This document shows positions 549-29,121 of a stretch of DNA of 30,663 bases, one piece after another. A program made the position numbers and the translations under genes. Within the stretch, counting starts at the first letter, position 1. The number at the start of each line of letters is the position of its first letter. The notes beneath the pieces were generated by a model. It searched no databases. It was not told the DNA's origin and was given only the letters and a program-made list of their open reading frames with translations. The stretch covers positions 1 to 30,663 of the forward strand of contig JBHLLT010000032.1 of assembly GCA_048938855.1 (NCBI GenBank), read 5' to 3'. Origin of the DNA: Promethearchaeota archaeon. Its GTDB lineage: Archaea > Asgardarchaeota > Lokiarchaeia > Sigyniarchaeales > SOKP01.

Positions 549-868
549 TTTTCTATCAACTCAAGTTCTTTTTCTAAATTTTTTTTTATTTTTTTTTTTT
601 GTTTGTTATTATAGCAGTTGAGATTTTTGATTGAATTAATTAACGTGCCATAACACATACTGAGTAGAACGTTTCGTATTTAAATGTTATGATCAAATTT
701 AAATATCTTAAATCGTTATGTATTATATAAGAATGAGGATTAATAACGTTCAATATTAAATGAAAATGTTTAGATTAATATAATATATTAATAAATATAT
801 CTTAACCAAATAAAAAATATTTAAATAAAAATTTAATATCAAAATTTTAAAGGAGTCTGAGAAATCGA

Positions 869-1597
869 GTGGATAAGAAATTTAGTAAAAATTTTGAAGA
901 AGAATGGGATAAATTAATAGCAAAGCATAAATTACGTTTTGATATCTGGGCTATCCTTGAACTTCATAATGAATTGAATGTTACTCAAATTACCCATTAT
1001 TTAGAACATAGTAAATCTACTGTTGCTAGACATCTTAAGCTGATGGAGAATGATGGTCTGCTTTTATCTAAGATTGGTGATGCAACAGTAGAAGGACGGA
1101 TACCTCCAAAAATCTATAAAATTAATCCAAAATTTAAAAAAAAAGAATTAAGGTCTGATGAATCAGATCTTTCAAAAGATCCTGAGAAACTCACACAATT
1201 TTTCAAAAGGGAAATTAATAATTACCGAAATTTAAGTTATAACATTACACAGTTATTAGATTACTTAGATCCATTATTAGATCTTCTTCAAGCGCAGTTA
1301 GGAGATATTAAAAAAGCCAAAAATACTTATGATAAATATCTCTCATATATAGACGAACCCATCTTTTTATATTTTGATAAGAAACGGGCTCAGAAACTTA
1401 TGGATCTAAGGACGGAGTATGTTTTCAAATTACACAAACTGGCTATGGATGAAGAATTAGATGCTGTAGAAGCATTTGTATATTTCGATATGTCTTTACC
1501 TCTTGCTGGTCTTTTTGAATTAAGAAGAAAAATTAAGCAAGCTCGAATAGATAAGGAAGTGGCAATTGAATTAGAACCATTAATCAAGAATTTTTAG
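869..1597 (+). CDS. ArsR-like winged-helix transcriptional regulator with a helical C-terminal extension
   Basis: RFDIWAILELHNELNVTQITHYLEHSKSTVARHLKLMENDGLL...KIYKIN matches the ArsR/HTH_20 wHTH pattern. AAGGAG lies upstream of the GTG start. Confidence 0.8.
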   Translation: MDKKFSKNFEEEWDKLIAKHKLRFDIWAILELHNELNVTQITHYLEHSKSTVARHLKLMENDGLLLSKIGDATVEGRIPPKIYKINPKFKKKELRSDESDLSKDPEKLTQFFKREINNYRNLSYNITQLLDYLDPLLDLLQAQLGDIKKAKNTYDKYLSYIDEPIFLYFDKKRAQKLMDLRTEYVFKLHKLAMDEELDAVEAFVYFDMSLPLAGLFELRRKIKQARIDKEVAIELEPLIKNF

Positions 1598-1816
1598 ATT
1601 TTCTCTCTTTTATCTCATTAATTATGAAATGAGAGCAGCTATTTTATTTTTTCAATCCTTTAGTTGATCAGAAAAAAATATAATCAAATAAATTTTTAAT
1701 AATTGGTAGAGGTATATAAATATAAGAAGTTCAAAATCTCGAAAAATTAAGAACAAATTGGAATCTTACTCCAAAAACGCAGATATTTAAAATTAATTAC
1801 TAGCTGAGGGCAATTA

Positions 1817-3226
1817 ATGTTAAGCGAGTTCTCTAAAATTAAACAACTTAAGGATGAGAGTAGATTTAAGGAAGCTCTTCAAATTATCAATGAACTGGAA
1901 AAAAACCATAATTTTTCAATAGATGAAAAATTTGAACTTTATCTTCTCAAGCATTCCCTCCTGTTTGAATTGGGGTATATGAATGAAGCTTTCACTTATT
2001 TGGATTTAGCAGAGGAAGAAAGAACTCATATAAAAGATAAACTCCAAATCTTCGATTTTCTCCTTTTTAAGATTAAACGTTTATTTATTCACGAAGAGAA
2101 CGATGAGGCAATTAAGATTCTTACGAAAGCTGAACGAATTCTTGAGACAATTAGTAATTTGTCATTAGTAGAATTTAAAGAGAGATATGCTTCTTTACTT
2201 CTAATAAAAGGGCTATATTATCTTAAGATAGGAAATAATGATCTTTCTATTGAATATGCTCAGAAGGTTTTAAAAATAGCTAAAGAAATTAATGATGAGA
2301 GGCTTAGATTACAAGCTTTTAAGTTATGGTGTTTTAATTACGGTTTTAAAGGTGATCATAAAAACGCTCTTAAAATTGGTAAAAATTATTTAGAATTGGC
2401 TAAGAAAGTAAATAATAAACAAGAAGTTATTGGTGCTCTTAATTCTTTGGGAATGACTCTCACTGAAAAAGAGGAATATGAACAAGCTTTAGACTATTTG
2501 GAACAAGGGTTATCAATATGTGATGAAATTAATAGTTTTAAAACAACCGCAGTTCTTACTTCTCTTTTTGATTTATATTTAAAAATAAACAATCTTGAAA
2601 AAGCTCAACAATGCCTAGTTCGTATAAAAAAGATCAAAAATCAAGTAAATCTAAAGTGGTTCGAGGATGCATATCATCTTGGAGAGGCAGAGTTCTTGAA
2701 AAAGAATTCTCAATGGATTAGCCAATTTAAGGCAAGAGAGATATTTAAGCAAATTATAAATGAAGAGGGTACATTCCTTGAATTCAATTATGTTGCCCTT
2801 ATACAACTTTGTGATTCATATTTAATAGAATTAGGCAACACAAATAATCTAAGAATATTAGATGAACTTCAACCTTATCTTACTCAATTAATGGATCTTG
2901 CCATTAGTCATCAATCTTATTGGTTACTTGTTGAAAGTTATTCATTTCAAGCTAAACTGAAACTTATAAATTTCGAATTTGGTGAAGCTATAAAATTTTT
3001 AGATCAAGCTTTATTAATAGCAAAGAAATACGGTCAAGACAGAATGGGCAAGCATATCATGAAAGAACGGGCTGAATTATCAAGAAATTTAATTAAATGG
3101 GAAAGATTAAAAGATACAGGAGCATCCATTTCAGACCGTATGGATTTAGCTCGCATTGATGAACAGATCGAACTTTTGCTTCAAAAGCGTAGATATTTAA
3201 AAACTATTAAAATATCTCAGGTATAA
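1817..3226 (+). CDS. Tetratricopeptide-repeat (TPR) protein
   Basis: Repeated helical hairpins such as ALNSLGMTLTEKEEYEQALDYLEQGLSIC and GLYYLKIGNNDLSIEYAQKVLKIA. GAGG lies upstream of the ATG. Confidence 0.8.
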   Translation: MLSEFSKIKQLKDESRFKEALQIINELEKNHNFSIDEKFELYLLKHSLLFELGYMNEAFTYLDLAEEERTHIKDKLQIFDFLLFKIKRLFIHEENDEAIKILTKAERILETISNLSLVEFKERYASLLLIKGLYYLKIGNNDLSIEYAQKVLKIAKEINDERLRLQAFKLWCFNYGFKGDHKNALKIGKNYLELAKKVNNKQEVIGALNSLGMTLTEKEEYEQALDYLEQGLSICDEINSFKTTAVLTSLFDLYLKINNLEKAQQCLVRIKKIKNQVNLKWFEDAYHLGEAEFLKKNSQWISQFKAREIFKQIINEEGTFLEFNYVALIQLCDSYLIELGNTNNLRILDELQPYLTQLMDLAISHQSYWLLVESYSFQAKLKLINFEFGEAIKFLDQALLIAKKYGQDRMGKHIMKERAELSRNLIKWERLKDTGASISDRMDLARIDEQIELLLQKRRYLKTIKISQV

Positions 3227-3371
3227 TAGTGATTTAATTTATAATTTTATTAAAAATAAAATTATTTTTGAAAAATCATTTAAAGCCTTCCTACCTAAAG
3301 TGATTCTTTTATAGTCAATAACTGTTAAATTCTAATTGAAGTTTACACAATCGTTACTTAGGTGAGAAAAT

Positions 3372-5522
3372 ATTACTACAATAGCGTGTTCATCATCTGT
3401 TTGTGAATTAGAGGAGGATGTAGAGAAAGCATCTTTTTTTGAAGAAAATTTCTGGTATTTCATTATTCCTGCAGCAATTTTACTTGGAATTTCCATATTA
3501 TTAGATTTTACTTTTAAAATTGGATTAATTGCTCAGATTCTCGCAATTGCTTCAGTTCTTCTTTCAAGTTCAGGAGTTGTGAAAGAAGCTATAGAAGATT
3601 TGAGTGAAAAGAAAATAACGGCTAATTTATTAATGCTTATTGCAGGTGTTGCATCATTTTTTATATTACATGGTCAAGAAGGTGCAACTGCTCTATTATT
3701 ATACGCTATAGCTGAAAGACTAGAGGTAATCACAACAGACAAATCGAGAAACGCTATTAAAGAATTACTGGAACTTGCTCCTGATGATGCATTATTAAAA
3801 TCGGAAAATGGGTATGTGAATGTCTCATCGAAAGAAGTCAAGATAGGGAATATCGTCGGTATAAAAGCAGGTATGAAAGTTCCACTAGACGGTGTTATTA
3901 TAAAAGGGAGTTCTTACTTTGATGAAAGTGCAATTACAGGTGAGTCCGTTCCAGTTTTCAAACAAGAAGGCGATGAGATTTTTGCAGCTAGCTTAAATAC
4001 TGATAGTTTTATAGATATAGAGGTAACTAGAGAAAGTACAAATACCATTGTTGCTCAAATAGCTGAAAGTGTGAAAGTTGCTCAACAAAATAAGAGCAAC
4101 CATGAACGATTTATAGAAAAATTTGCTAAATATTATACTCCTATTATTCTTTTAGCATCTATTTTAGTAATGGTTATTCCTCCCTTATTTGGTTTCAATT
4201 TTTACAATTGGTTCTATCGCGGATTAGTTCTATTAGTAGTTTCATGTCCCTGTGCTCTAACTCTATCTACACCTTTAGCAAATATAGCCTCTTTAACAAA
4301 ACAAGCACGAGAGGGGATTCTGGTGAAAGGTAATAAGTTTATCGAAAAACTTCAAGATGTTGAGGCTTTTGCATTTGATAAAACAGGAACCCTTACTGAA
4401 GGTAGATTAAAAATATTTGAAATTTATCCTTATAACGGTGCAAATAAAATGGATATAATAAATATTGCTGCAAGTTTAGAAGCTCTTTCTGAGCATCCAA
4501 TTGGAAAAGCAATAGTGAATCAAGCAAAAGAGATGCAATTAAAATTCCAAGCTGTTGATGATTTTGAAATCATAAAAGGAAAGGGTATTAAAGGAAATAT
4601 AAATGGTGAAATATTTTACGTTGGGAGCCAAACTTTTATTGAAGGATTGAATTATGAACTTCCTGTGGATGACCTTAAAGATATTCAAACCTCTGGAACT
4701 ATTCCCATTCTATTAGGAAACCAAAAACATTTGCTAGGAATAATCTCAATTCGAGATGTATTAAGGGTTTCTGCTCCGATCCTAATCAATGGATTAAAAA
4801 AGAGAGGTTATGAGACTGTATTAATTTCCGGTGATAATCAGAATGTATGTAACTCAATTGGAGCATGTTTAGATATTGATCAGGCTTATGGTGAACATCT
4901 ACCAGACCAAAAGCTTGAAGAAATAAAGAATCTAAAACAAAAATATAAAGGAGTAGCTATGGTAGGTGATGGCATAAATGATGCTCCAGCATTAGCTCTT
5001 GCAGACTTAGGGATTGCTATTGGAGCCTCTGCTACTGATATTACCTTAGAAACTGCGGATATCATAGTGATTGGGGAAGATTTGAAAAAAATTCTTACCT
5101 ATGTTGATCTCTCTAAAAATACTAATAAAAAAATAAGACAGAATATATGGACTTCTATTCTTGTTAAAATTTCATTTGCTATCTTGACAGTTATTGGTTT
5201 TATGACTCTCTGGTTAGCAGTTGGTATAGGAGATATGGGGGTTTCTTTACTAGTTTTACTGAATAGCCTAACTATTTTCCGTTATAAATTTAAATATAAG
5301 GAAATCGCTAAAGAAGAAGTAGAAAGTGAAGCCAAAATGATAATATGTGATAACTGTAAAACAAAAGATATTATACCGCAACATCATGGAAGAGATATGG
5401 TTCAGAAAGGAGATAAGTTAATTTGCTGGAAAAATATTCTTAGCAGTGAGGAGTTGGAAACTTGTAATGAAGAATTACCACTCCACTGCCCTTATTGTAA
5501 TAATAAGATGGAATTAAAATAG
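3372..5522 (+). CDS. Heavy-metal-translocating P1B-type ATPase (ZntA/CadA-like) with a C-terminal Cys/His metal-binding tail; start extended upstream of the ORF-track call
   Basis: Motifs TGES, CPC (VVSCPCALTLS), DKTGT, SEHP, SGDN and MVGDGINDAPAL, plus K in TM7 and DMG in TM8 as in the P1B-2 subfamily. The frame is open from 3366 and encodes CSSSVC and two extra TM helices. GGTGA at 3361-3365 suggests an ATT (3372) or ATA (3381) start; the exact start is uncertain. Confidence 0.9.
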   Translation: MTTIACSSSVCELEEDVEKASFFEENFWYFIIPAAILLGISILLDFTFKIGLIAQILAIASVLLSSSGVVKEAIEDLSEKKITANLLMLIAGVASFFILHGQEGATALLLYAIAERLEVITTDKSRNAIKELLELAPDDALLKSENGYVNVSSKEVKIGNIVGIKAGMKVPLDGVIIKGSSYFDESAITGESVPVFKQEGDEIFAASLNTDSFIDIEVTRESTNTIVAQIAESVKVAQQNKSNHERFIEKFAKYYTPIILLASILVMVIPPLFGFNFYNWFYRGLVLLVVSCPCALTLSTPLANIASLTKQAREGILVKGNKFIEKLQDVEAFAFDKTGTLTEGRLKIFEIYPYNGANKMDIINIAASLEALSEHPIGKAIVNQAKEMQLKFQAVDDFEIIKGKGIKGNINGEIFYVGSQTFIEGLNYELPVDDLKDIQTSGTIPILLGNQKHLLGIISIRDVLRVSAPILINGLKKRGYETVLISGDNQNVCNSIGACLDIDQAYGEHLPDQKLEEIKNLKQKYKGVAMVGDGINDAPALALADLGIAIGASATDITLETADIIVIGEDLKKILTYVDLSKNTNKKIRQNIWTSILVKISFAILTVIGFMTLWLAVGIGDMGVSLLVLLNSLTIFRYKFKYKEIAKEEVESEAKMIICDNCKTKDIIPQHHGRDMVQKGDKLICWKNILSSEELETCNEELPLHCPYCNNKMELK

Positions 5523-11073: not shown

Positions 11074-12597
11074 TTAAATCATTACATCTTTACCAGGCAA
11101 AGATACTGTACCTGCCCTTAATCCCTCTGCTTCCATATAATATTCAAGAGTTCGTTCTTCTACTTCTTTAATATAAGTTAGAAGTTTAGACTCAACTTCA
11201 GTTGATATATCTCTTGGAGTAAATCCATTCAATATCTGTTCTACTTTTTCTTTAGCAGATATAATAATATCTTTTGATCCTTTTTTACGCCAAGTTGTTC
11301 TCCTATCTCTATTGGTAAGTTTATGAATAGGCATATATAATTCTTGTTTCATAAATTTTCTTGTATGTCTTTCAGCTAAATAGTTAGAACCTGGTTTCTC
11401 GCTTGTAGCTACTTTTTTTATAGTTTCTAATCCAATTGTTTCTTCGTTTACATTAATTCCTTCCACCGCTCTTCTGACCATACCTGCTAATTCATCATCA
11501 ATCACGAGTAATTCTAAGGCTTCAACAAGAGTTGCTTCATAGGTCCCAGCACATGTTATGTAGTTTATACCTGCTTGAGCTGCTAGCAAGAGTGTTTGAT
11601 ATCTTTCAAAACCATTTTGGAGATCAAGTACTTTTGAATCGGTAACTAGTCCTGGTCCACGCGAGGGAATATTATAAAATCTAGCTAATTGAGCAATTCC
11701 AGCAGTAATCAGTCCTGTCTCAACGCTTCCCATGGCTGAATTACCAGAACGCATATCAGTAATATGAGACACTGTACCATAAAATATAGGCGCACCAGGA
11801 TTATAAATTTGAGAAAGAACTGCTCCTCCTATGATTTCTGCATTAGTCTGAGTTAGTAAACCTGCAAGAGTAACAGGAGCAGAAGTACCCGCTAAAGCTT
11901 CAGGGGGAATAATCGTAGGTTGTTTATATTTAGCGAAAATTTCAAATCCATTAGTCATAATTTGAGGAAAGTGTAAGGGGCTTGTTGGACTAAAATAACC
12001 TACCAATCTGGGCCTTTTAATTAATTCTTCATCTCCTCCGACAACTATCGATACCATATTCATCATATCTTGTGATGCTAATCTACCAATACAACCCATT
12101 CCGTACGGTTTTTTAGTATTTTTTGCCCATTGATAAATACAATGAGCATGTATAGCAGTATAAGATATATCATTAGGCCAAATATCTAAATTAGAGCAAC
12201 AAATATTGTCTAAATAATCTACAATTCGGATTTGCTTAATTGTATCCTCCAAGACAGTTTTTTTAACTCCACTTTTATGTGTTGGATCATAAATTTTTAC
12301 TGGAGTTCCTATTGTAGCAAATACCATACTTTCCATATTTATTCCAAAACTAAAACTTCCATCTGGACCATATAAGCTAAATGAATCGGGTACTGTTTTA
12401 AGGCGTTCTTTAACAAGTTCTTCAGGAAATTTAATAAACTTCGAATCAGAATTTGTTTCAGCTCCATTTTTTTCAAGTAAATCTCGTGTTTCTTTAGAAT
12501 CTATTTTAATGCCCACAGAGGACAAAAGCTCTAAAGATGCTGAATTTATTAATTCAATTTCATCTTTTGAAAGTAATTCTAATTTTTTCATTCTCAT
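11074..12597 (-). CDS. MttB-superfamily corrinoid methyltransferase, pyrrolysine-free (copy 1)
   Basis: PTSPL, AGTSAPVTLAGLLTQTNAE, PGAPIFYG, DMRSG...GSVE, TDSKVLDLQNGFE and LLVIDDE. There is no in-frame TAG. Confidence 0.9.
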   Translation of the reverse strand: MRMKKLELLSKDEIELINSASLELLSSVGIKIDSKETRDLLEKNGAETNSDSKFIKFPEELVKERLKTVPDSFSLYGPDGSFSFGINMESMVFATIGTPVKIYDPTHKSGVKKTVLEDTIKQIRIVDYLDNICCSNLDIWPNDISYTAIHAHCIYQWAKNTKKPYGMGCIGRLASQDMMNMVSIVVGGDEELIKRPRLVGYFSPTSPLHFPQIMTNGFEIFAKYKQPTIIPPEALAGTSAPVTLAGLLTQTNAEIIGGAVLSQIYNPGAPIFYGTVSHITDMRSGNSAMGSVETGLITAGIAQLARFYNIPSRGPGLVTDSKVLDLQNGFERYQTLLLAAQAGINYITCAGTYEATLVEALELLVIDDELAGMVRRAVEGINVNEETIGLETIKKVATSEKPGSNYLAERHTRKFMKQELYMPIHKLTNRDRRTTWRKKGSKDIIISAKEKVEQILNGFTPRDISTEVESKLLTYIKEVEERTLEYYMEAEGLRAGTVSLPGKDVMI

Positions 12598-23479: not shown

Positions 23480-23624
23480 AATTGAAAAATGATGAGATTT
23501 GAATTTAAAATAGAATGGTATGTAGAACTTGACTTAGGTATGATTTTAATATTATCTAAATACCTATATTTATATTATTTTTGTATTATCTAAGAATTTA
23601 ATAATAAGAAAAAGTTTAATACAA

Positions 23625-23741
23625 ATGGAACGGCTTCCTAGAACTAATCTACTGAAAGAATTTTTGCAGAATTATTTCAAAGAAGTTGAAGGTCTTCTAA
23701 GTGTAGCTATATGTGATCACATTCTTTTATATTGGCTATAG
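23625..23741 (+). pseudogene. Truncated roadblock/LAMTOR-like gene (N-terminal helix and first strand only)
   Basis: MERLPRTNLLKEFLQNYFKEVEGLLSVAICD resembles the start of roadblock domains (helix, then V.G....AI.D..G). It is followed by HILLYWL* instead of the rest of the domain. Confidence 0.5.
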
Positions 23742-23911: not shown

Positions 23912-25651
23912 GTGAATAAAATACAAACACAGCGATCTCCATATGATTCTAAAATTTGGTTAAAATCATATGATGAACATGTTAAACCAAGTTTGGAATA
24001 TCCAAGGGAAAGTCTTGGTAAATTATTTGATAAAGCAATCTCAAGATACCCCAATAGAGTAGCTTGTTATTTTATGAAAAATAAAATAATATTTGAAGAG
24101 TTTCGAAGTTATGTATATAGCTTTGCTACTTTTTTACAGAGAAATGGCTTAGTTAAAGGTGATAGAGTGGCGATTATGCTCCCAAATTGTCCTCAATACA
24201 TGGTAGCACATATCGGGACGTTAATTGCAGGCGGAGTTGCTTCAGGATGTTCACCCCTTTTAAGCCCAACTGAAATTACTTATCAATTAAATGATTCTCA
24301 AGCGAAATTCTTTGTTACTCTGGATGCGATTTATGCGAAAGTTTTAATAAAGATATTGGATAATGTGCCAAATCTTCAATCAATTATCACTACTAATATT
24401 GCTGATTATATGGGACTTCCTGGCGCTCTAGTATTCATTGGAAAATTAGCAGGAAAGATTCCAAAAGGAAAAGTTAAACCATATCCCGGAAAAGATGTAA
24501 TCGATTTCCAAGAAGTGATGAAAATACAAAAGGATTTTAAAATTCCTGATATTGATATTGAAAAAGATCTAGCTCTACTTCAATATACAGGAGGTACCAC
24601 AGGGCTTCCAAAAGGTACAGAACTAACCCATCGAAACATTATTTCAAATATGGAGCAAATTATAACTTGGATTGACAGAAAAGTAGCAGGTGAGGGTGAG
24701 ATTAACTTATCTGCTTTTCCAATGTTCCATTTAGCAGGATTAGCAATGAGTATGGTTACACTTTACATATCTGGACCACAAATTTTAATTGCAGATCCTA
24801 GAGATACCAAACACTTAATTAAAGAAGTAATCGATAAACATCCTAGTATAATGGTTAATGTACCGACTTTATATTTATCAATAAAAAACAGTCCACTAGC
24901 AGATAAAATTCCTGAATCCGCTTTAGATAGATTGGAAGTCTATATTTCTGGTGCGGCTCCATTCCCTGCTGAGGCAATTCGTGATTTTGAAACTTCGATG
25001 AAAGCAACAAATAAACTTATGGAAGTATATGGAATGACAGAGACATCTCCAATTTTAACTATGAATCCTTATCGTGGGAAAAAAAAAATTGGGACAGTTG
25101 GTATACCAGTACCAGATACCGAAATTCGAATTGTTGATGTTGAAACTGGGAAACAAGTTGAGCTTGGTAAACCTGGTGAGATAATTTGTAGAGGCCCTCA
25201 AGTCACTAGGGGGTATTACAATAAGCCAGAAGCAAATTCTAAAACGATCATTGATGGATGGTTTCATACTGGTGATGTAGGCGTTATGGATGAAGATGGT
25301 TTTATTACAATTGTAGATCGGACAAAAGATATGTTAATTGTTAGTGGTTATAAAGTGTATAGTGTTCATGTTGAGGATATCTTAACAAGGCATCCTAATG
25401 TTGAAATGGTTGCTATCATTGGTCTTACAGATCCAGAGCGCCCAGGCAGTGAGACTGTTAAAGCAATTGTCCAACTTAAAGAAGGCATCCAACTAAGTGA
25501 AAAAGTTAAAGAAGATTTGAAAAATTATGCTTCTGAACATCTCTCAAAATATGAAAATCCTAGAATTTGGGAATTTAGGGATTCACTACCCTTAACTACA
25601 GTTGGAAAAGTTTTGAAAAGAACATTAAGAGAAGAGATTGAAAAGAGTTAA
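23912..25651 (+). CDS. fadD: Long-chain fatty-acid-CoA ligase (FadD-like ANL enzyme)
   Basis: LQYTGGTTGLPKG, YGMTETSP, GWFHTGD, IVDRTKDMLIVSG and LPLTTVGKVLKR. Confidence 0.9.
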   Translation: MNKIQTQRSPYDSKIWLKSYDEHVKPSLEYPRESLGKLFDKAISRYPNRVACYFMKNKIIFEEFRSYVYSFATFLQRNGLVKGDRVAIMLPNCPQYMVAHIGTLIAGGVASGCSPLLSPTEITYQLNDSQAKFFVTLDAIYAKVLIKILDNVPNLQSIITTNIADYMGLPGALVFIGKLAGKIPKGKVKPYPGKDVIDFQEVMKIQKDFKIPDIDIEKDLALLQYTGGTTGLPKGTELTHRNIISNMEQIITWIDRKVAGEGEINLSAFPMFHLAGLAMSMVTLYISGPQILIADPRDTKHLIKEVIDKHPSIMVNVPTLYLSIKNSPLADKIPESALDRLEVYISGAAPFPAEAIRDFETSMKATNKLMEVYGMTETSPILTMNPYRGKKKIGTVGIPVPDTEIRIVDVETGKQVELGKPGEIICRGPQVTRGYYNKPEANSKTIIDGWFHTGDVGVMDEDGFITIVDRTKDMLIVSGYKVYSVHVEDILTRHPNVEMVAIIGLTDPERPGSETVKAIVQLKEGIQLSEKVKEDLKNYASEHLSKYENPRIWEFRDSLPLTTVGKVLKRTLREEIEKS

Positions 25652-25760
25652 TGAATAAATTTCTATTTTTTTTTTAATTCCATTTGTTTGAATTCAACAT
25701 CATTTTTTTAATCCGTGTTTAACTAACATTATTAAATCGATAAATTAATAATAATTAAAA

Positions 25761-25765
25761 GAGGT
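25761..25765 (+). promoter_or_regulatory. Shine-Dalgarno-like site (GAGGT) of the candidate selenoprotein gene
   Basis: Matches the archaeal anti-SD complement (GGAGGTGA). No comparably good site precedes ATG 25834. Confidence 0.6.
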
Positions 25766-25773
25766 TTTATGAA

Positions 25774-26694
25774 ATAGTACTCAAAATTGTATGGCATGAG
25801 ATTTTAGCTACGTGAAATACGCGTGGATACGTTATGGGTTTTTCAATAAAAGAGCTTACATACAAAGGAAAATACCTCATTTATTTAAGTGAACAGGAAT
25901 TAACCGGCCCTTGGTTTAGTTTTAAATTAGAAGGAAAAAAGATTGGTACAATTCCAGTGATCCTTAAAAATATTGAACCTACACCGATTTATAATATGGT
26001 TAACACCAGAACAGGAACACATATAAGTAGAATCACTCTTGATTTCAATATTACAGCGTATTTAAAGAAACTGGTAAAAGAAAAAAAAATATCTCCAATT
26101 CCGTTAGAAAAAAAAGAATTTGTTCGTGTATACAAGGATATCTTCAATCCTCGTAAAGTACCATATATTAATACATTTTTCACGTTAAAAAATATATCAG
26201 ATTTTGCACTGAAAGATTTTTCGATGTATTTTGTCTTTGATTTTGATATAAATGGATTAGCGGGATATGATAACGATCTCTCAGGTTATGACAAAGAAAA
26301 TGATATAATTTACCAATATGACAATACCGGTCTATATGGTGGATTCTCTCCCATTTCTAAATCTACCAACTTTGAATCATGTTTAACTAAAGATTTTACA
26401 GTTGATCAGAATAAAATGAATCTTTCCAATACGCTCCACAAAGGACCTGGAGAAATTTTATCTGCTTTACAAATTGAATTCATGACTATAGAGCCTGATC
26501 ATACATTTCAAACTGCTCTCGTTATATCTGGTGGAGAAAGCAAAGAAGAATTATTCGAAAATATTAAACAAGGAAAAAGTAACGCTATGAAGCATCTTCA
26601 TCAAGTAAATAGGTCTGTAAAATCAGACCAACGAAATCTTCAGGAAGAAGCATTTATTAAAATTAATCTCCAACAAGCCGAAGATTGTAAATAA
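25774..26694 (+). CDS. Candidate selenoprotein of unknown family (306 aa, Sec14 encoded by in-frame TGA 25813-25815)
   Basis: Upstream of ATG 25834 the same frame reads ATA GTA CTC AAA ATT GTA TGG CAT GAG ATT TTA GCT ACG TGA AAT ACG CGT GGA TAC GTT ATG (IVLKIVWHEILAT*NTRGYVM). GAGGT at 25761-25765 sits 8 nt before the ATA, and a SECIS-like hairpin follows the stop. Confidence 0.75.
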
Positions 26695-26774
26695 AAAATC
26701 CTAAATAATGACTCAAATAAAAAAACCATTTTGGAAAGTTATTTGATGAAAACTCTGCTCGAGAAGGATTTTTT
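26693..26774 (+). promoter_or_regulatory. Eukaryote-type SECIS element in the 3' UTR
   Basis: Helix I AAAAAATCCT (26693-26702) pairs with AGGATTTTTT (26765-26774). The core is ATGAC (26708-26712) opposite TGAA (26747-26750), giving tandem GA/AG. Helix II TCAAATAA (26713-26720) pairs with TTATTTGA (26739-26746). Unpaired AAAAA (26721-26725) precedes a mini-stem CCA-TTT-TGG. Confidence 0.8.
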
Positions 26775-28020: not shown

Positions 28021-29121
28021 TTAATTTAATAATTGAATAAAATATCCTATGATTCTCAATTTATTATCAAATCGATTAAAATCTGTTATAATTCCTTTTA
28101 ATCCAGATCCATTATGATAAAAAGTTTTATCAAATTTCATATTTACTATTCCAGAGTTTCCAGGAAGGATTTCATCTCCTTCAGTAAATTTGAATGGTGT
28201 AGATTTTAAATCTACCAGCGCATTATATTGAATCCCATTTCCTGGCTTTACAACATTATCCTTAGGTTTATAAAATTGATTAATAAAGACCCTTGCCTTA
28301 ATTTGGTGTTCTGATATGAATATTCCTTGATTAGTTAAAATGTTATCTCTACTGATATCTTCTGCGGAAATATTACCCTTTAATGCGAGACCTACTCGAT
28401 CACCTTTAATAGCCGTCTTAAAATCTCGATCATGCTTTTGGATACTTCGAATAATAACTTTTTTACTAGGGCCATCATACCCCGTTAATTCTAACATTTG
28501 GCCAGTGCTTATTTTTCCTTCCTTGACGATTCCTAAAATAACGGTTCCAATACCCTTTACTGGAAAAGCGTGATCTATTAAAATTTTCGTAATTCCATTA
28601 ATTTCGTTATTTAATTCTTCAGACCGTGAATGAAGTTCAATTATTTTCCTTTTCAACTTAATGTAATCTTCTTTAATCCTTAAATCGATTAATTGTGTAT
28701 CTTTTAAACTAGTTGTATCTAGAATTTTTTTTACTTTTTCCTTAAAATCTAATAATTTCCACTCATTTCTAGAAGTAATACCAGAAATTACTACTAACTC
28801 CTGAGTATTATATATTTGGTGAAATAAATCCATCCCCACAATAATTTCTCCTATTATAGAGTTTAAACCAATATCTAAATCTAAAACCAAAAGATGAATA
28901 TTAGTTAAGACCAGTGTTTGTAAAAAAGGTTTAATTTTATTAGGATAATCTAAAGGAGTCAATGCACAAAATACTTGGTTCAGCTCTGCATCAAGTCGAT
29001 TGTAAAATTGAATATCTGATTTTGTACCTGGTGCACCTAATGCTTGTCCAATAAGTTTATTATACTCTAAATTTGCTCCAAAAATTCCTACAATAAAATT
29101 ATGTTCCACAGATTCACTCAT
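28021..29121 (-). CDS. SelB-like/EF-Tu-fold protein with a degenerate G domain (aSelBL-like)
   Basis: Domain II motifs LIDHAFPVKGIGTVILG and IRSIQKHD...GDRVGLAL are present, along with GTKSDI and DYPNKIKP. GxxxxGKS/T, DxxG and NKxD are absent, and there is no domain IV. Confidence 0.8.
   Translation of the reverse strand: MSESVEHNFIVGIFGANLEYNKLIGQALGAPGTKSDIQFYNRLDAELNQVFCALTPLDYPNKIKPFLQTLVLTNIHLLVLDLDIGLNSIIGEIIVGMDLFHQIYNTQELVVISGITSRNEWKLLDFKEKVKKILDTTSLKDTQLIDLRIKEDYIKLKRKIIELHSRSEELNNEINGITKILIDHAFPVKGIGTVILGIVKEGKISTGQMLELTGYDGPSKKVIIRSIQKHDRDFKTAIKGDRVGLALKGNISAEDISRDNILTNQGIFISEHQIKARVFINQFYKPKDNVVKPGNGIQYNALVDLKSTPFKFTEGDEILPGNSGIVNMKFDKTFYHNGSGLKGIITDFNRFDNKLRIIGYFIQLLN

Follow-up and report, generated by a model that had tools for sequence, protein, structure and literature searches.

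We found that a stretch of DNA from a 3.95-Mb Lokiarchaeia/Promethearchaeota metagenome-assembled genome (contig C47; the whole stretch of 30,663 nucleotides is referred to as the window) very probably encodes, at 25774..26694, a 306-residue selenoprotein of an uncatalogued family, in which an in-frame UGA would be read as selenocysteine (Sec). All features of the gene lie on the + strand. Behind an in-frame TAA (25753-25755), the frame is open up to the TAA at 26692-26694 if the UGA is read as a sense codon. A Shine-Dalgarno-like GAGGT (25761..25765) is found 8 nt 5' of an ATA codon (25774..25776), which is the putative non-canonical AUA start as judged by alignment with the start codons of relatives. 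The ATA opens an N-terminal extension of 13 codons, IVLKIVWHEILAT (25774..25812), which has coding-type periodicity and is predicted to form beta-strand 1; it is followed by the UGA (25813..25815; Sec14) and by six codons, NTRGYV (25816..25833). The annotated open reading frame (ORF) of 286 codons begins at ATG 25834 and ends with the TAA at 26692-26694 (25834..26694), so that the full coding sequence of 306 amino acids, Sec14 included, spans 25774..26694. A candidate selenocysteine insertion sequence (SECIS) element occupies 26695..26774.

An initial annotation of this DNA had pointed to the GAGGT, the ATA codon, the in-frame TGA, the 286-residue ORF and the 3' hairpin, all of which are present, and had proposed a 306-residue protein with Sec14 that gene callers truncate at the UGA. 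The proposed protein gains support from the conservation of both flanks of the UGA, from a Cys/Sec alignment column, from the SECIS element and from the Sec machinery of the genome, as laid out below. The truncation is seen in the databases: the gene is annotated as a 286-residue hypothetical protein, and all 120 database relatives listed are 281-287 residues long, that is, cut at the UGA. TGA serves as an ordinary stop in 2 of the 20 long frames of the window and TAA in 16 of 20 (GC content 29.6%).

Conservation of the UGA codon and its 3' element

To compare the gene among close relatives, we used its orthologues in 34 genomes of the genus, each representing a species (75-90% protein identity). 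We reject the idea that the UGA is a chance feature because the TGA is invariant (34/34), the Thr codon preceding it uses all four synonyms (ACA, ACC, ACG and ACT) and the true stop of the gene varies (23 TAA, 7 TAG, 4 TGA). Nucleotide diversity at codon positions 1/2/3 is 3.73/1.05/7.01 in the 13 codons 5' of the TGA, 1.47/0.83/2.14 in the six codons 3' of it and 1.48/1.09/6.92 in the first 20 annotated codons; the purifying selection 5' of the UGA is seen in at least 34 species and in eight genera besides. Changes in the NTRGYV codons are synonymous and of the third-position type (GGA/GGC, TAT/TAC, GTN/ATN/CTC), and since these codons have no start codon of their own, they would be translated only by read-through of the UGA. 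Conservation is therefore present on both sides of the TGA among the orthologues of the genus.

More distant homologues place a cysteine or a selenocysteine at the position of the UGA. In the sister family f2, the N-terminus reads M-D-I-F-I-D-Y-E-T-I-C-I-N-C-Q-E-K-G-Y-S-F-G-Y, and the second Cys of its CxxC aligns with the UGA of the window without a gap. C-x-x-TGA follows an ATG or GTG start in the relatives in f4 and f3, and f12, which belongs to another class (an atlas match suggests Thorarchaeota), has C-x-S-TGA-G behind ATG, with the TGA at the same column in each case; one f12 member, L196, has Cys in place of the TGA. Genus g19 of the window's own family keeps C-I-T-TGA (CxxU). The f2 proteins and homologues P0128, P0131, P0132, P0147, P0151 and P0153 have Cys here, as the second one of their CxxC; the column is invariantly Cys or Sec in the 25-row family alignment, and the G-Y pair of NTRGYV is conserved in the contiguous CxxC homologues. 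With CxxU or CxxC found in f2, f3, f4, f12 and g19, the alignments point to this motif as the ancestral state, the first Cys having been lost only in the window's genus and its closest relatives. The initial annotation had stated that the protein has no CxxU/UxxC motif. This holds for the window protein, which has L-A-T-U, but not for the family. It had also named two Cys as possible partners of Sec14: the penultimate Cys305 is conserved in nearly all relatives that retain the C-terminal tail (25-row alignment), but beyond the genus the ESC cysteine is not conserved.

The family is widespread. Across an even sample of the phylum, we found it in 138 of 301 genomes, and each of the full-length same-family matches listed contains a single in-frame TGA; the exceptions, G030 and G317, have hits that begin at profile position 14-15, 3' of the UGA, owing to an intron-like insert (see below). 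The UGA form occurs in at least two classes. Sequence searches of Pfam (at threshold), NCBIfam and the PDB with family members returned no matches, and 34 cluster representatives out of 1.84 billion match the protein.

We next consider the start codon. There is no in-frame ATG, GTG or TTG between 25756 and 25833 of the window. At the start position, 31 of the 34 genus orthologues have ATA and three have ATT, with GGAGG(T), AGGAGG or GAGGT 7-9 nt 5' of it. An earlier start is excluded because in-frame stops are frequent in these loci between the Shine-Dalgarno motif and the ATA or ATT codon. The window ATA aligns with Met1 of the CxxC homologues in f2, and relatives in f4 and f3 have ATG or GTG starts. 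Other genera of the window's family mostly have ATA, in one case with a TAA immediately 5' of it, and genus g19 (L201, L207) has a GTG start one codon 3' of the ATA position. These alignments with the Met or GTG start of relatives bear out the ATA start of the initial annotation, and initiation at AUA is, in our judgement, the best reading and a likely one. In the g19 orthologues L201 and L207, F takes the place of M at the annotated start, which would leave gene callers without a fallback AUG. Separately, a P-type ATPase frame at window 3366-3578 (+) has 71 open codons, including two transmembrane helices, and no ATG, GTG or TTG; a GGTGA lies 6 nt 5' of ATT 3372, which is likely a second non-canonical start in the window.

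The 3' hairpin starts inside the stop codon and ends at 26774. We assign it to the Asgard eSECIS-like type II with an extra 3' hairpin, based on pairing, covariation and a SelD-like architecture. The base is helix I (26695-26701 with 26766-26772), whose pairing can continue into the stop codon; it is followed by AUGA (26708-26711), an 8-bp helix II (26713-26720 with 26739-26746), the A-run AAAAA (26721-26725), a CC/GG ministem (26726-27 with 26733-34), GA (26748-26749) and a side hairpin (26753-55 with 26761-63). In all genus loci the element lies 1-3 nt 3' of the stop and has its parts in the same order: AAUCC, a short loop, AUGA, a helix of 8-9 bp, AAAAA, a ministem of 2-5 bp, the return strand of the helix, GA, a small CUC/GAG hairpin and GGAUU. 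Within the genus, 94.1% of alignment cells are paired, compared to 24-47% with slid partners, and four pairs show compensatory changes. When we aligned the genus loci with those of eight further genera and three paralogous elements, 97.5% of cells were paired and 11 of 15 pairs, in all three helices, were compensatory, although this alignment was fitted to the model and leans towards it; slid partners gave 24-53% overall, and none of 500 shuffles reached the covariation score. A descriptor of the eSECIS core (AUGA, 8-9 bp helix, A-run, GA) is matched without mismatch 14-21 nt 3' of the stop in 31 of the 34 genus loci and, at that place, in none of the CxxC loci, so the element goes with the TGA-bearing orthologues and is absent behind the CxxC homologues. 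The 3'-UTR SECIS of the initial annotation thus takes shape as a covarying three-helix element with an AUGA/GA core.

In type II eSECIS-like elements of Asgard archaea, an AUGA/GA core flanks helix II; unpaired adenines follow this helix, a ministem forms the apex and a lower stem the base (PMC11227280). The window element has the AUGA..GA core, unpaired A after helix II, the ministem and a lower stem (AAUCC/GGAUU). It differs from the description in that paper by the extra 3' hairpin. Immediately behind the stops of the two SelD genes of the genome lie SECIS elements of the same architecture, extra 3' hairpin included, which serve as one of two internal controls in favour of a SECIS function.

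As the second control, we searched the whole genome with a covariance model of the window element. This gave two significant hits besides the window element, and a local search of the locus concerned gave a third. All three belong to a single array of small ORFs, each of which holds one in-frame TGA; the two that are precisely placed lie directly after the stops of such ORFs. This array (G000:C70:122715-125809; L064) holds five small two-helix membrane ORFs on the minus strand of the locus (670..876, 1601..1825, 1880..2089, 2298..2531 and 2555..2812) and three-helix SECIS elements at 579-677, 1501-1595 and 2190-2288; it is a putative second uncatalogued selenoprotein family. The descriptor found nothing within 400 nt behind the UGA-bearing f4 homologues. 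UGA-bearing homologues in f4 (L025, L027, L036) and f12 (L188-L193) have no AUGA/GA element; conserved GC-rich hairpins with UAGC-type loops are found in the first ~60 nt after their stops, and the Cys-form L196 of f12 has a GC-rich hairpin too. These hairpins may be a second SECIS type.

The genome has the machinery for Sec decoding. On contig C49 we found a tRNA-Sec with anticodon TCA (61 bits), a SepSecS gene (366 bits) ~200 nt 3' of it and, ~5 kb away, a SelB-like gene (232 bits); there is also a PSTK-like gene (133 bits). The SelB-like and PSTK-like genes are full-length and score below the curated cut-offs of their models. Two Sec-SelD genes each have one TGA, in the motif G-U-x-CK. In the mechanism that we propose, translation would start at AUA 25774, 8 nt after the GAGGT; archaeal SelB with Sec-tRNA(Sec) would be recruited to UGA 25813 by the SECIS at 26695-26774, about 880 nt downstream, and selenocysteine would be inserted as residue 14. 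Termination would take place at UAA 26692, which would be too close to the SECIS for recoding.

Predicted fold and a possible role of Sec14

AlphaFold, run on the family alignment, gave a confident model (predicted local distance difference test, pLDDT, 90.4; predicted template modelling score 0.89). In this model, residues 3-13 form strand 1, which is paired with strand 18-30, and Sec14 is located at the turn of this first beta-hairpin. A helical tail follows the sandwich, and the C-terminal tail has pLDDT <50, with the last residues disordered. The fold of model residues 1-280 is the supersandwich of the N-domains of glycoside hydrolase (GH) families GH15, GH94, GH116 and GH65 (Z 18-20; root-mean-square deviation 2.6-3.6 Å over 216-237 residues, with 9-15% sequence identity); galactose mutarotases match with Z 12-13. 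Foldseek reports probability 1.00 and E-values down to 6e-10, and the matches extend from model residue 1. The galactose-mutarotase-type sandwich suggested in the initial annotation is thus recovered as a supersandwich, and its idea of a non-thioredoxin selenoprotein agrees with the predicted beta supersandwich plus helices. No member matches PF06165 or another Pfam family at threshold; a weak atlas lead (0.87) is a cluster with PF06165 in 10% of its members. Besides the Cys/Sec column, several Gly, F50 and a D-F-D motif are invariant in the alignment. The central D-F-D part of the domain is also found inside larger proteins, such as P0154 (623 residues) and open frames of 1,460-1,540 residues in f12 and f2 genomes, one of which has a C-terminal HEIGH metalloprotease-like region; because this part occurs in much larger proteins, the supersandwich module is not confined to the selenoprotein.

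We tentatively propose that Sec14 may be a redox-active nucleophile at the tip of the hairpin that is resolved by the penultimate Cys305 on the flexible tail, in a selenenylsulfide cycle. We favour a redox role because the ancestral motif is CxxU/CxxC, as seen in the series of CxxC, CxxU and lone-U proteins. The main rival accepts the selenoprotein and makes Sec14 a metal ligand, in a Cys/Sec metal or Fe-S site derived from a CxxC or CxxCxxC hairpin. CxxC at the turn of a beta-hairpin is a common form of metal knuckle, CxxCxxC is found in one clade (P0134, P0139, P0143), f4 and f2 have an extra conserved Cys near GPW/GPC, and the invariant D-F-D motif would also suit such a site. However, only Sec14 and Cys305 are conserved in the genus, too few ligands for a tetrahedral site, and redox motifs usually take the form CxxU, with Sec second (see the CxxU entries tabulated in PMC13188914). 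We therefore regard a metal site as unlikely, though it is the strongest competitor of the redox cycle.

Alternative readings of the locus

Several points weigh against a translated Sec14 with a redox role. The case for translation of the UGA is comparative, as is the support for AUA, which is a non-canonical start; to our knowledge, efficient initiation at AUA is not established in archaea. The covariance model of the window element did not retrieve the SelD elements in a search of the whole genome, and their likeness is one of architecture, seen by eye. Rfam found no SECIS family in the window and the 3'UTR at gathering score or at E up to 10, a null that says little if Rfam 15 has no model built on Asgard SECIS elements. 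We make no claim on Sec-Cys geometry because the first Cys is lost in the genus and the tail has pLDDT <50, and the f12 relatives have no C-terminal Cys altogether. Finally, at least six related loci carry a frame-breaking insert of 28-32 nt directly 3' of the TGA, which counts against read-through there unless the insert is removed from the mRNA.

We found this insert in same-genus genomes (L007, L011, L023, L024, L194) and on a metagenome contig (L187). A pattern scan of the genome contigs was loose and gave nearly all chance hits, with one real locus, L095, which is the same as L024; the scan of metagenomes gave one further locus, L187. In all insert loci, the upstream peptide, UGA and SECIS are undamaged. 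The base of the insert is constant (CUUG ... CAAG, then CUUC/GAAG), and its inner helix varies, with covariation between the two strands. Its central 4-bp helix, CUUG/CAAG, is flanked by two 3-nt bulges on opposite strands (AAU; AAA, or AUA in L007). The full bulge-helix-bulge (BHB) is present in four of five minimum-free-energy folds, and L007 shows the central CUUG/CAAG helix only. A cut after the second bulge nucleotide yields the exact insert-less sequence; the same cut restores the conserved Asn codon in L007, where a naive boundary would give Tyr. The UGA codon itself lies inside the central helix of the insert, and the insert is patchy on the gene tree, with four gains or losses. The BHB motif has been defined and tRNA introns are frequently gained in Asgard archaea (bioRxiv 10.64898/2026.10.13.758758), and the insert is likely a tRNA-type (BHB) intron in an mRNA, as far as its sequence and folds can tell. 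The broadest reading of these data, which could well hold but which we put forward with some reserve, is an Asgard-wide class of supersandwich selenoenzymes, AUA-initiated here, whose mRNA in some species is first spliced by the tRNA-splicing endonuclease at a BHB intron. If this is true, splicing would be a precondition of selenocysteine decoding in the insert-bearing species; the position of the insert on the UGA makes the splicing of tRNA-type introns from Asgard mRNAs directly testable.

A different gene structure would be one in which the UGA is the true stop of a conserved 13-codon leader, an upstream ORF (uORF), the protein starts at AUG 25834 and the 3' element is employed otherwise. 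A separate uORF would permit frame-breaking inserts directly 3' of the UGA, the gene-caller annotation agrees with it and the upstream frame has no canonical start. However, the uORF would need the same AUA start, its stop would be expected to drift among TAA, TAG and TGA like the real stop, yet it is TGA in 34/34 orthologues, and the six codons between UGA and AUG evolve as coding sequence with no start of their own. In f2, leader and body are one contiguous CxxC polypeptide; in three other lineages, the TGA is at the same column behind canonical starts; and in the AlphaFold model residues 3-13 are part of the sandwich, as its strand 1. We consider the uORF very improbable.

The N-terminal segment could be a decaying relic of a nonsense mutation that was fixed in the ancestor of the genus, with a protein that works without strand 1. 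The loss of the first Cys of the ancestral CxxU in the genus and the insert at the UGA in some relatives would fit such decay. In contrast, diversity 5' of the UGA is 1.05 at position 2 as compared to 7.01 at position 3, as expected under purifying selection; the Shine-Dalgarno motif, the start position and a conserved, covarying SECIS are retained; the insert-bearing loci, too, keep the upstream peptide, UGA and SECIS intact; and we saw no locus with frameshifts or stops in the upstream frame but an intact body. A relic is thus hardly credible. The same is true of the proposal that the 3' element is an intrinsic terminator of convergent genes or a C/D-box small RNA: the element does end in a U-run between convergent genes and has weak Rfam matches to C/D small nucleolar RNAs (snoRNAs; 14-24 bits), but these score well short of the gathering thresholds, the sequence of the putative C' box differs between orthologues (UGAUGA, UGAGGA, UGACGA, UAAUGA), the element stays with the gene even next to a different downstream neighbour, in this genome it is found only together with UGA-bearing genes, and its AUGA/GA core, A-run and ministem are those of Asgard type II (PMC11227280). 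We rejected a C/D snoRNA identity, as the boxes are not conserved. Taken together, these data favour a selenoprotein with Sec14 over the other readings of the locus.

Genomic surroundings and comparison with known systems

Twenty genus loci have enough flanking sequence to show the co-directional gene upstream, and in 18 of them it encodes a Roadblock-Ras-like GTPase. The window and its sister have an AMP-dependent ligase gene there instead (window 23912..25651), and a remnant of the GTPase gene, 33 codons with 64% identity, is found at window 23622-23720 (+). A convergent DNA methyltransferase downstream is common to at least 14 loci. Among the genus loci compared, the neighbour genes suggest no operon or function for the selenoprotein. 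At window 28021..29121 (-), 1.3 kb from the SECIS, a 366-residue EF-Tu/SelB-like protein has domain 2 and no recognisable match to the GTPase domain; this gene and the methyltransferase recur downstream in at least five genus loci with short flanks. Elsewhere, Rfam PYLIS_3 matches window 11547-11646 (-) at 41.7 bits, above the gathering score, inside the ORF 11074..12597 (-), which encodes a 507-residue MttB-like protein and has no in-frame TAG; the match is probably homologous coding sequence of a pyrrolysine-free MttB.

Five families of Asgard selenoproteins were listed first (Mariotti 2016, PMC4989117) and later seven (Huang 2024, PMC11227280; repeated in the 2026 review PMC13188914): SelD, FrhA/VhuU, HdrA, FrhD/VhuD, Prx-like, AhpF-N-like and DsbA-like. 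The window family, or anything like it, is absent from the lists in these three papers. Published surveys of Asgard selenoproteins were homology searches or covered other metagenomes, and that of 2024 relied solely on homology to known selenoproteins (PMC11227280); all seven listed families were found in this way. Because the family is in 138 of 301 sampled Asgard genomes and its UGA form in at least two classes, the Asgard selenoprotein catalogue is incomplete; lineage-specific selenoproteins escape searches that use homology alone. Two annotation errors are systematic in these genomes, namely genes cut short at UGA and overlooked AUA or AUU starts. The occurrence of CxxC, CxxU and lone-U states in close relatives is a natural experiment on the replacement of Cys by Sec.

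The predicted fold is held in common with the N-domains of GH15, GH94 and GH116 enzymes (1lf6, 1ulv, 2cqs, 7w2t, 8rf9); in contrast to these, the window protein stands alone, with no (alpha/alpha)6 catalytic domain, and a shared fold does not show a shared function. We found no precedent for a selenoprotein with the supersandwich fold in the searchable literature, and we know of no GH or mutarotase supersandwich protein that is a selenoprotein or has an N-terminal CxxC/CxxU hairpin. The relatives resemble the selenoproteins of the thioredoxin fold with CxxU or UxxC (SelW/Rdx-type, Prx-like, DsbA-like) in having CxxU where others have CxxC, an exchange that, by analogy, is a classic sign of a redox pair; they differ in the fold, which is a beta supersandwich, and the window protein has a lone Sec (L-A-T-U). 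In selenoproteins of the MsrB1 type, the Cys that resolves the catalytic Sec lies far from it, elsewhere in the polypeptide. The window protein is similar in having one conserved Sec and one far conserved Cys (U14, C305), with the Cys at a flexible end; it has no sequence or fold relationship to MsrB1, and the U14-C305 pairing is a tentative proposal.

Archaeal BHB introns include the intron of the Cbf5 pre-mRNA in Crenarchaeota. The insert in the relatives has the motif of such introns, a 4-bp helix and two 3-nt bulges; it differs in lying in a protein-coding gene, with the UGA codon in its central helix, and in having an outer helix that is weak or absent in some copies.

In comparison with the seven Asgard families, the window protein belongs to none, matches no Pfam or NCBIfam model and does not have a thioredoxin-like, hydrogenase or Hdr fold. 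The likeness is in how the genes would be decoded: in known Asgard selenoprotein genes, as in the window gene, the UGA is aligned with a Cys of homologues and the same Sec machinery is present, and the known type II SECIS elements, as in SelD, have the AUGA/GA core, A-run and apical ministem close behind the stop, like the window's. The decoding system is thus a known one; in the searchable literature we found no earlier mention of the protein family, of its fold among selenoproteins or of the AUA start.

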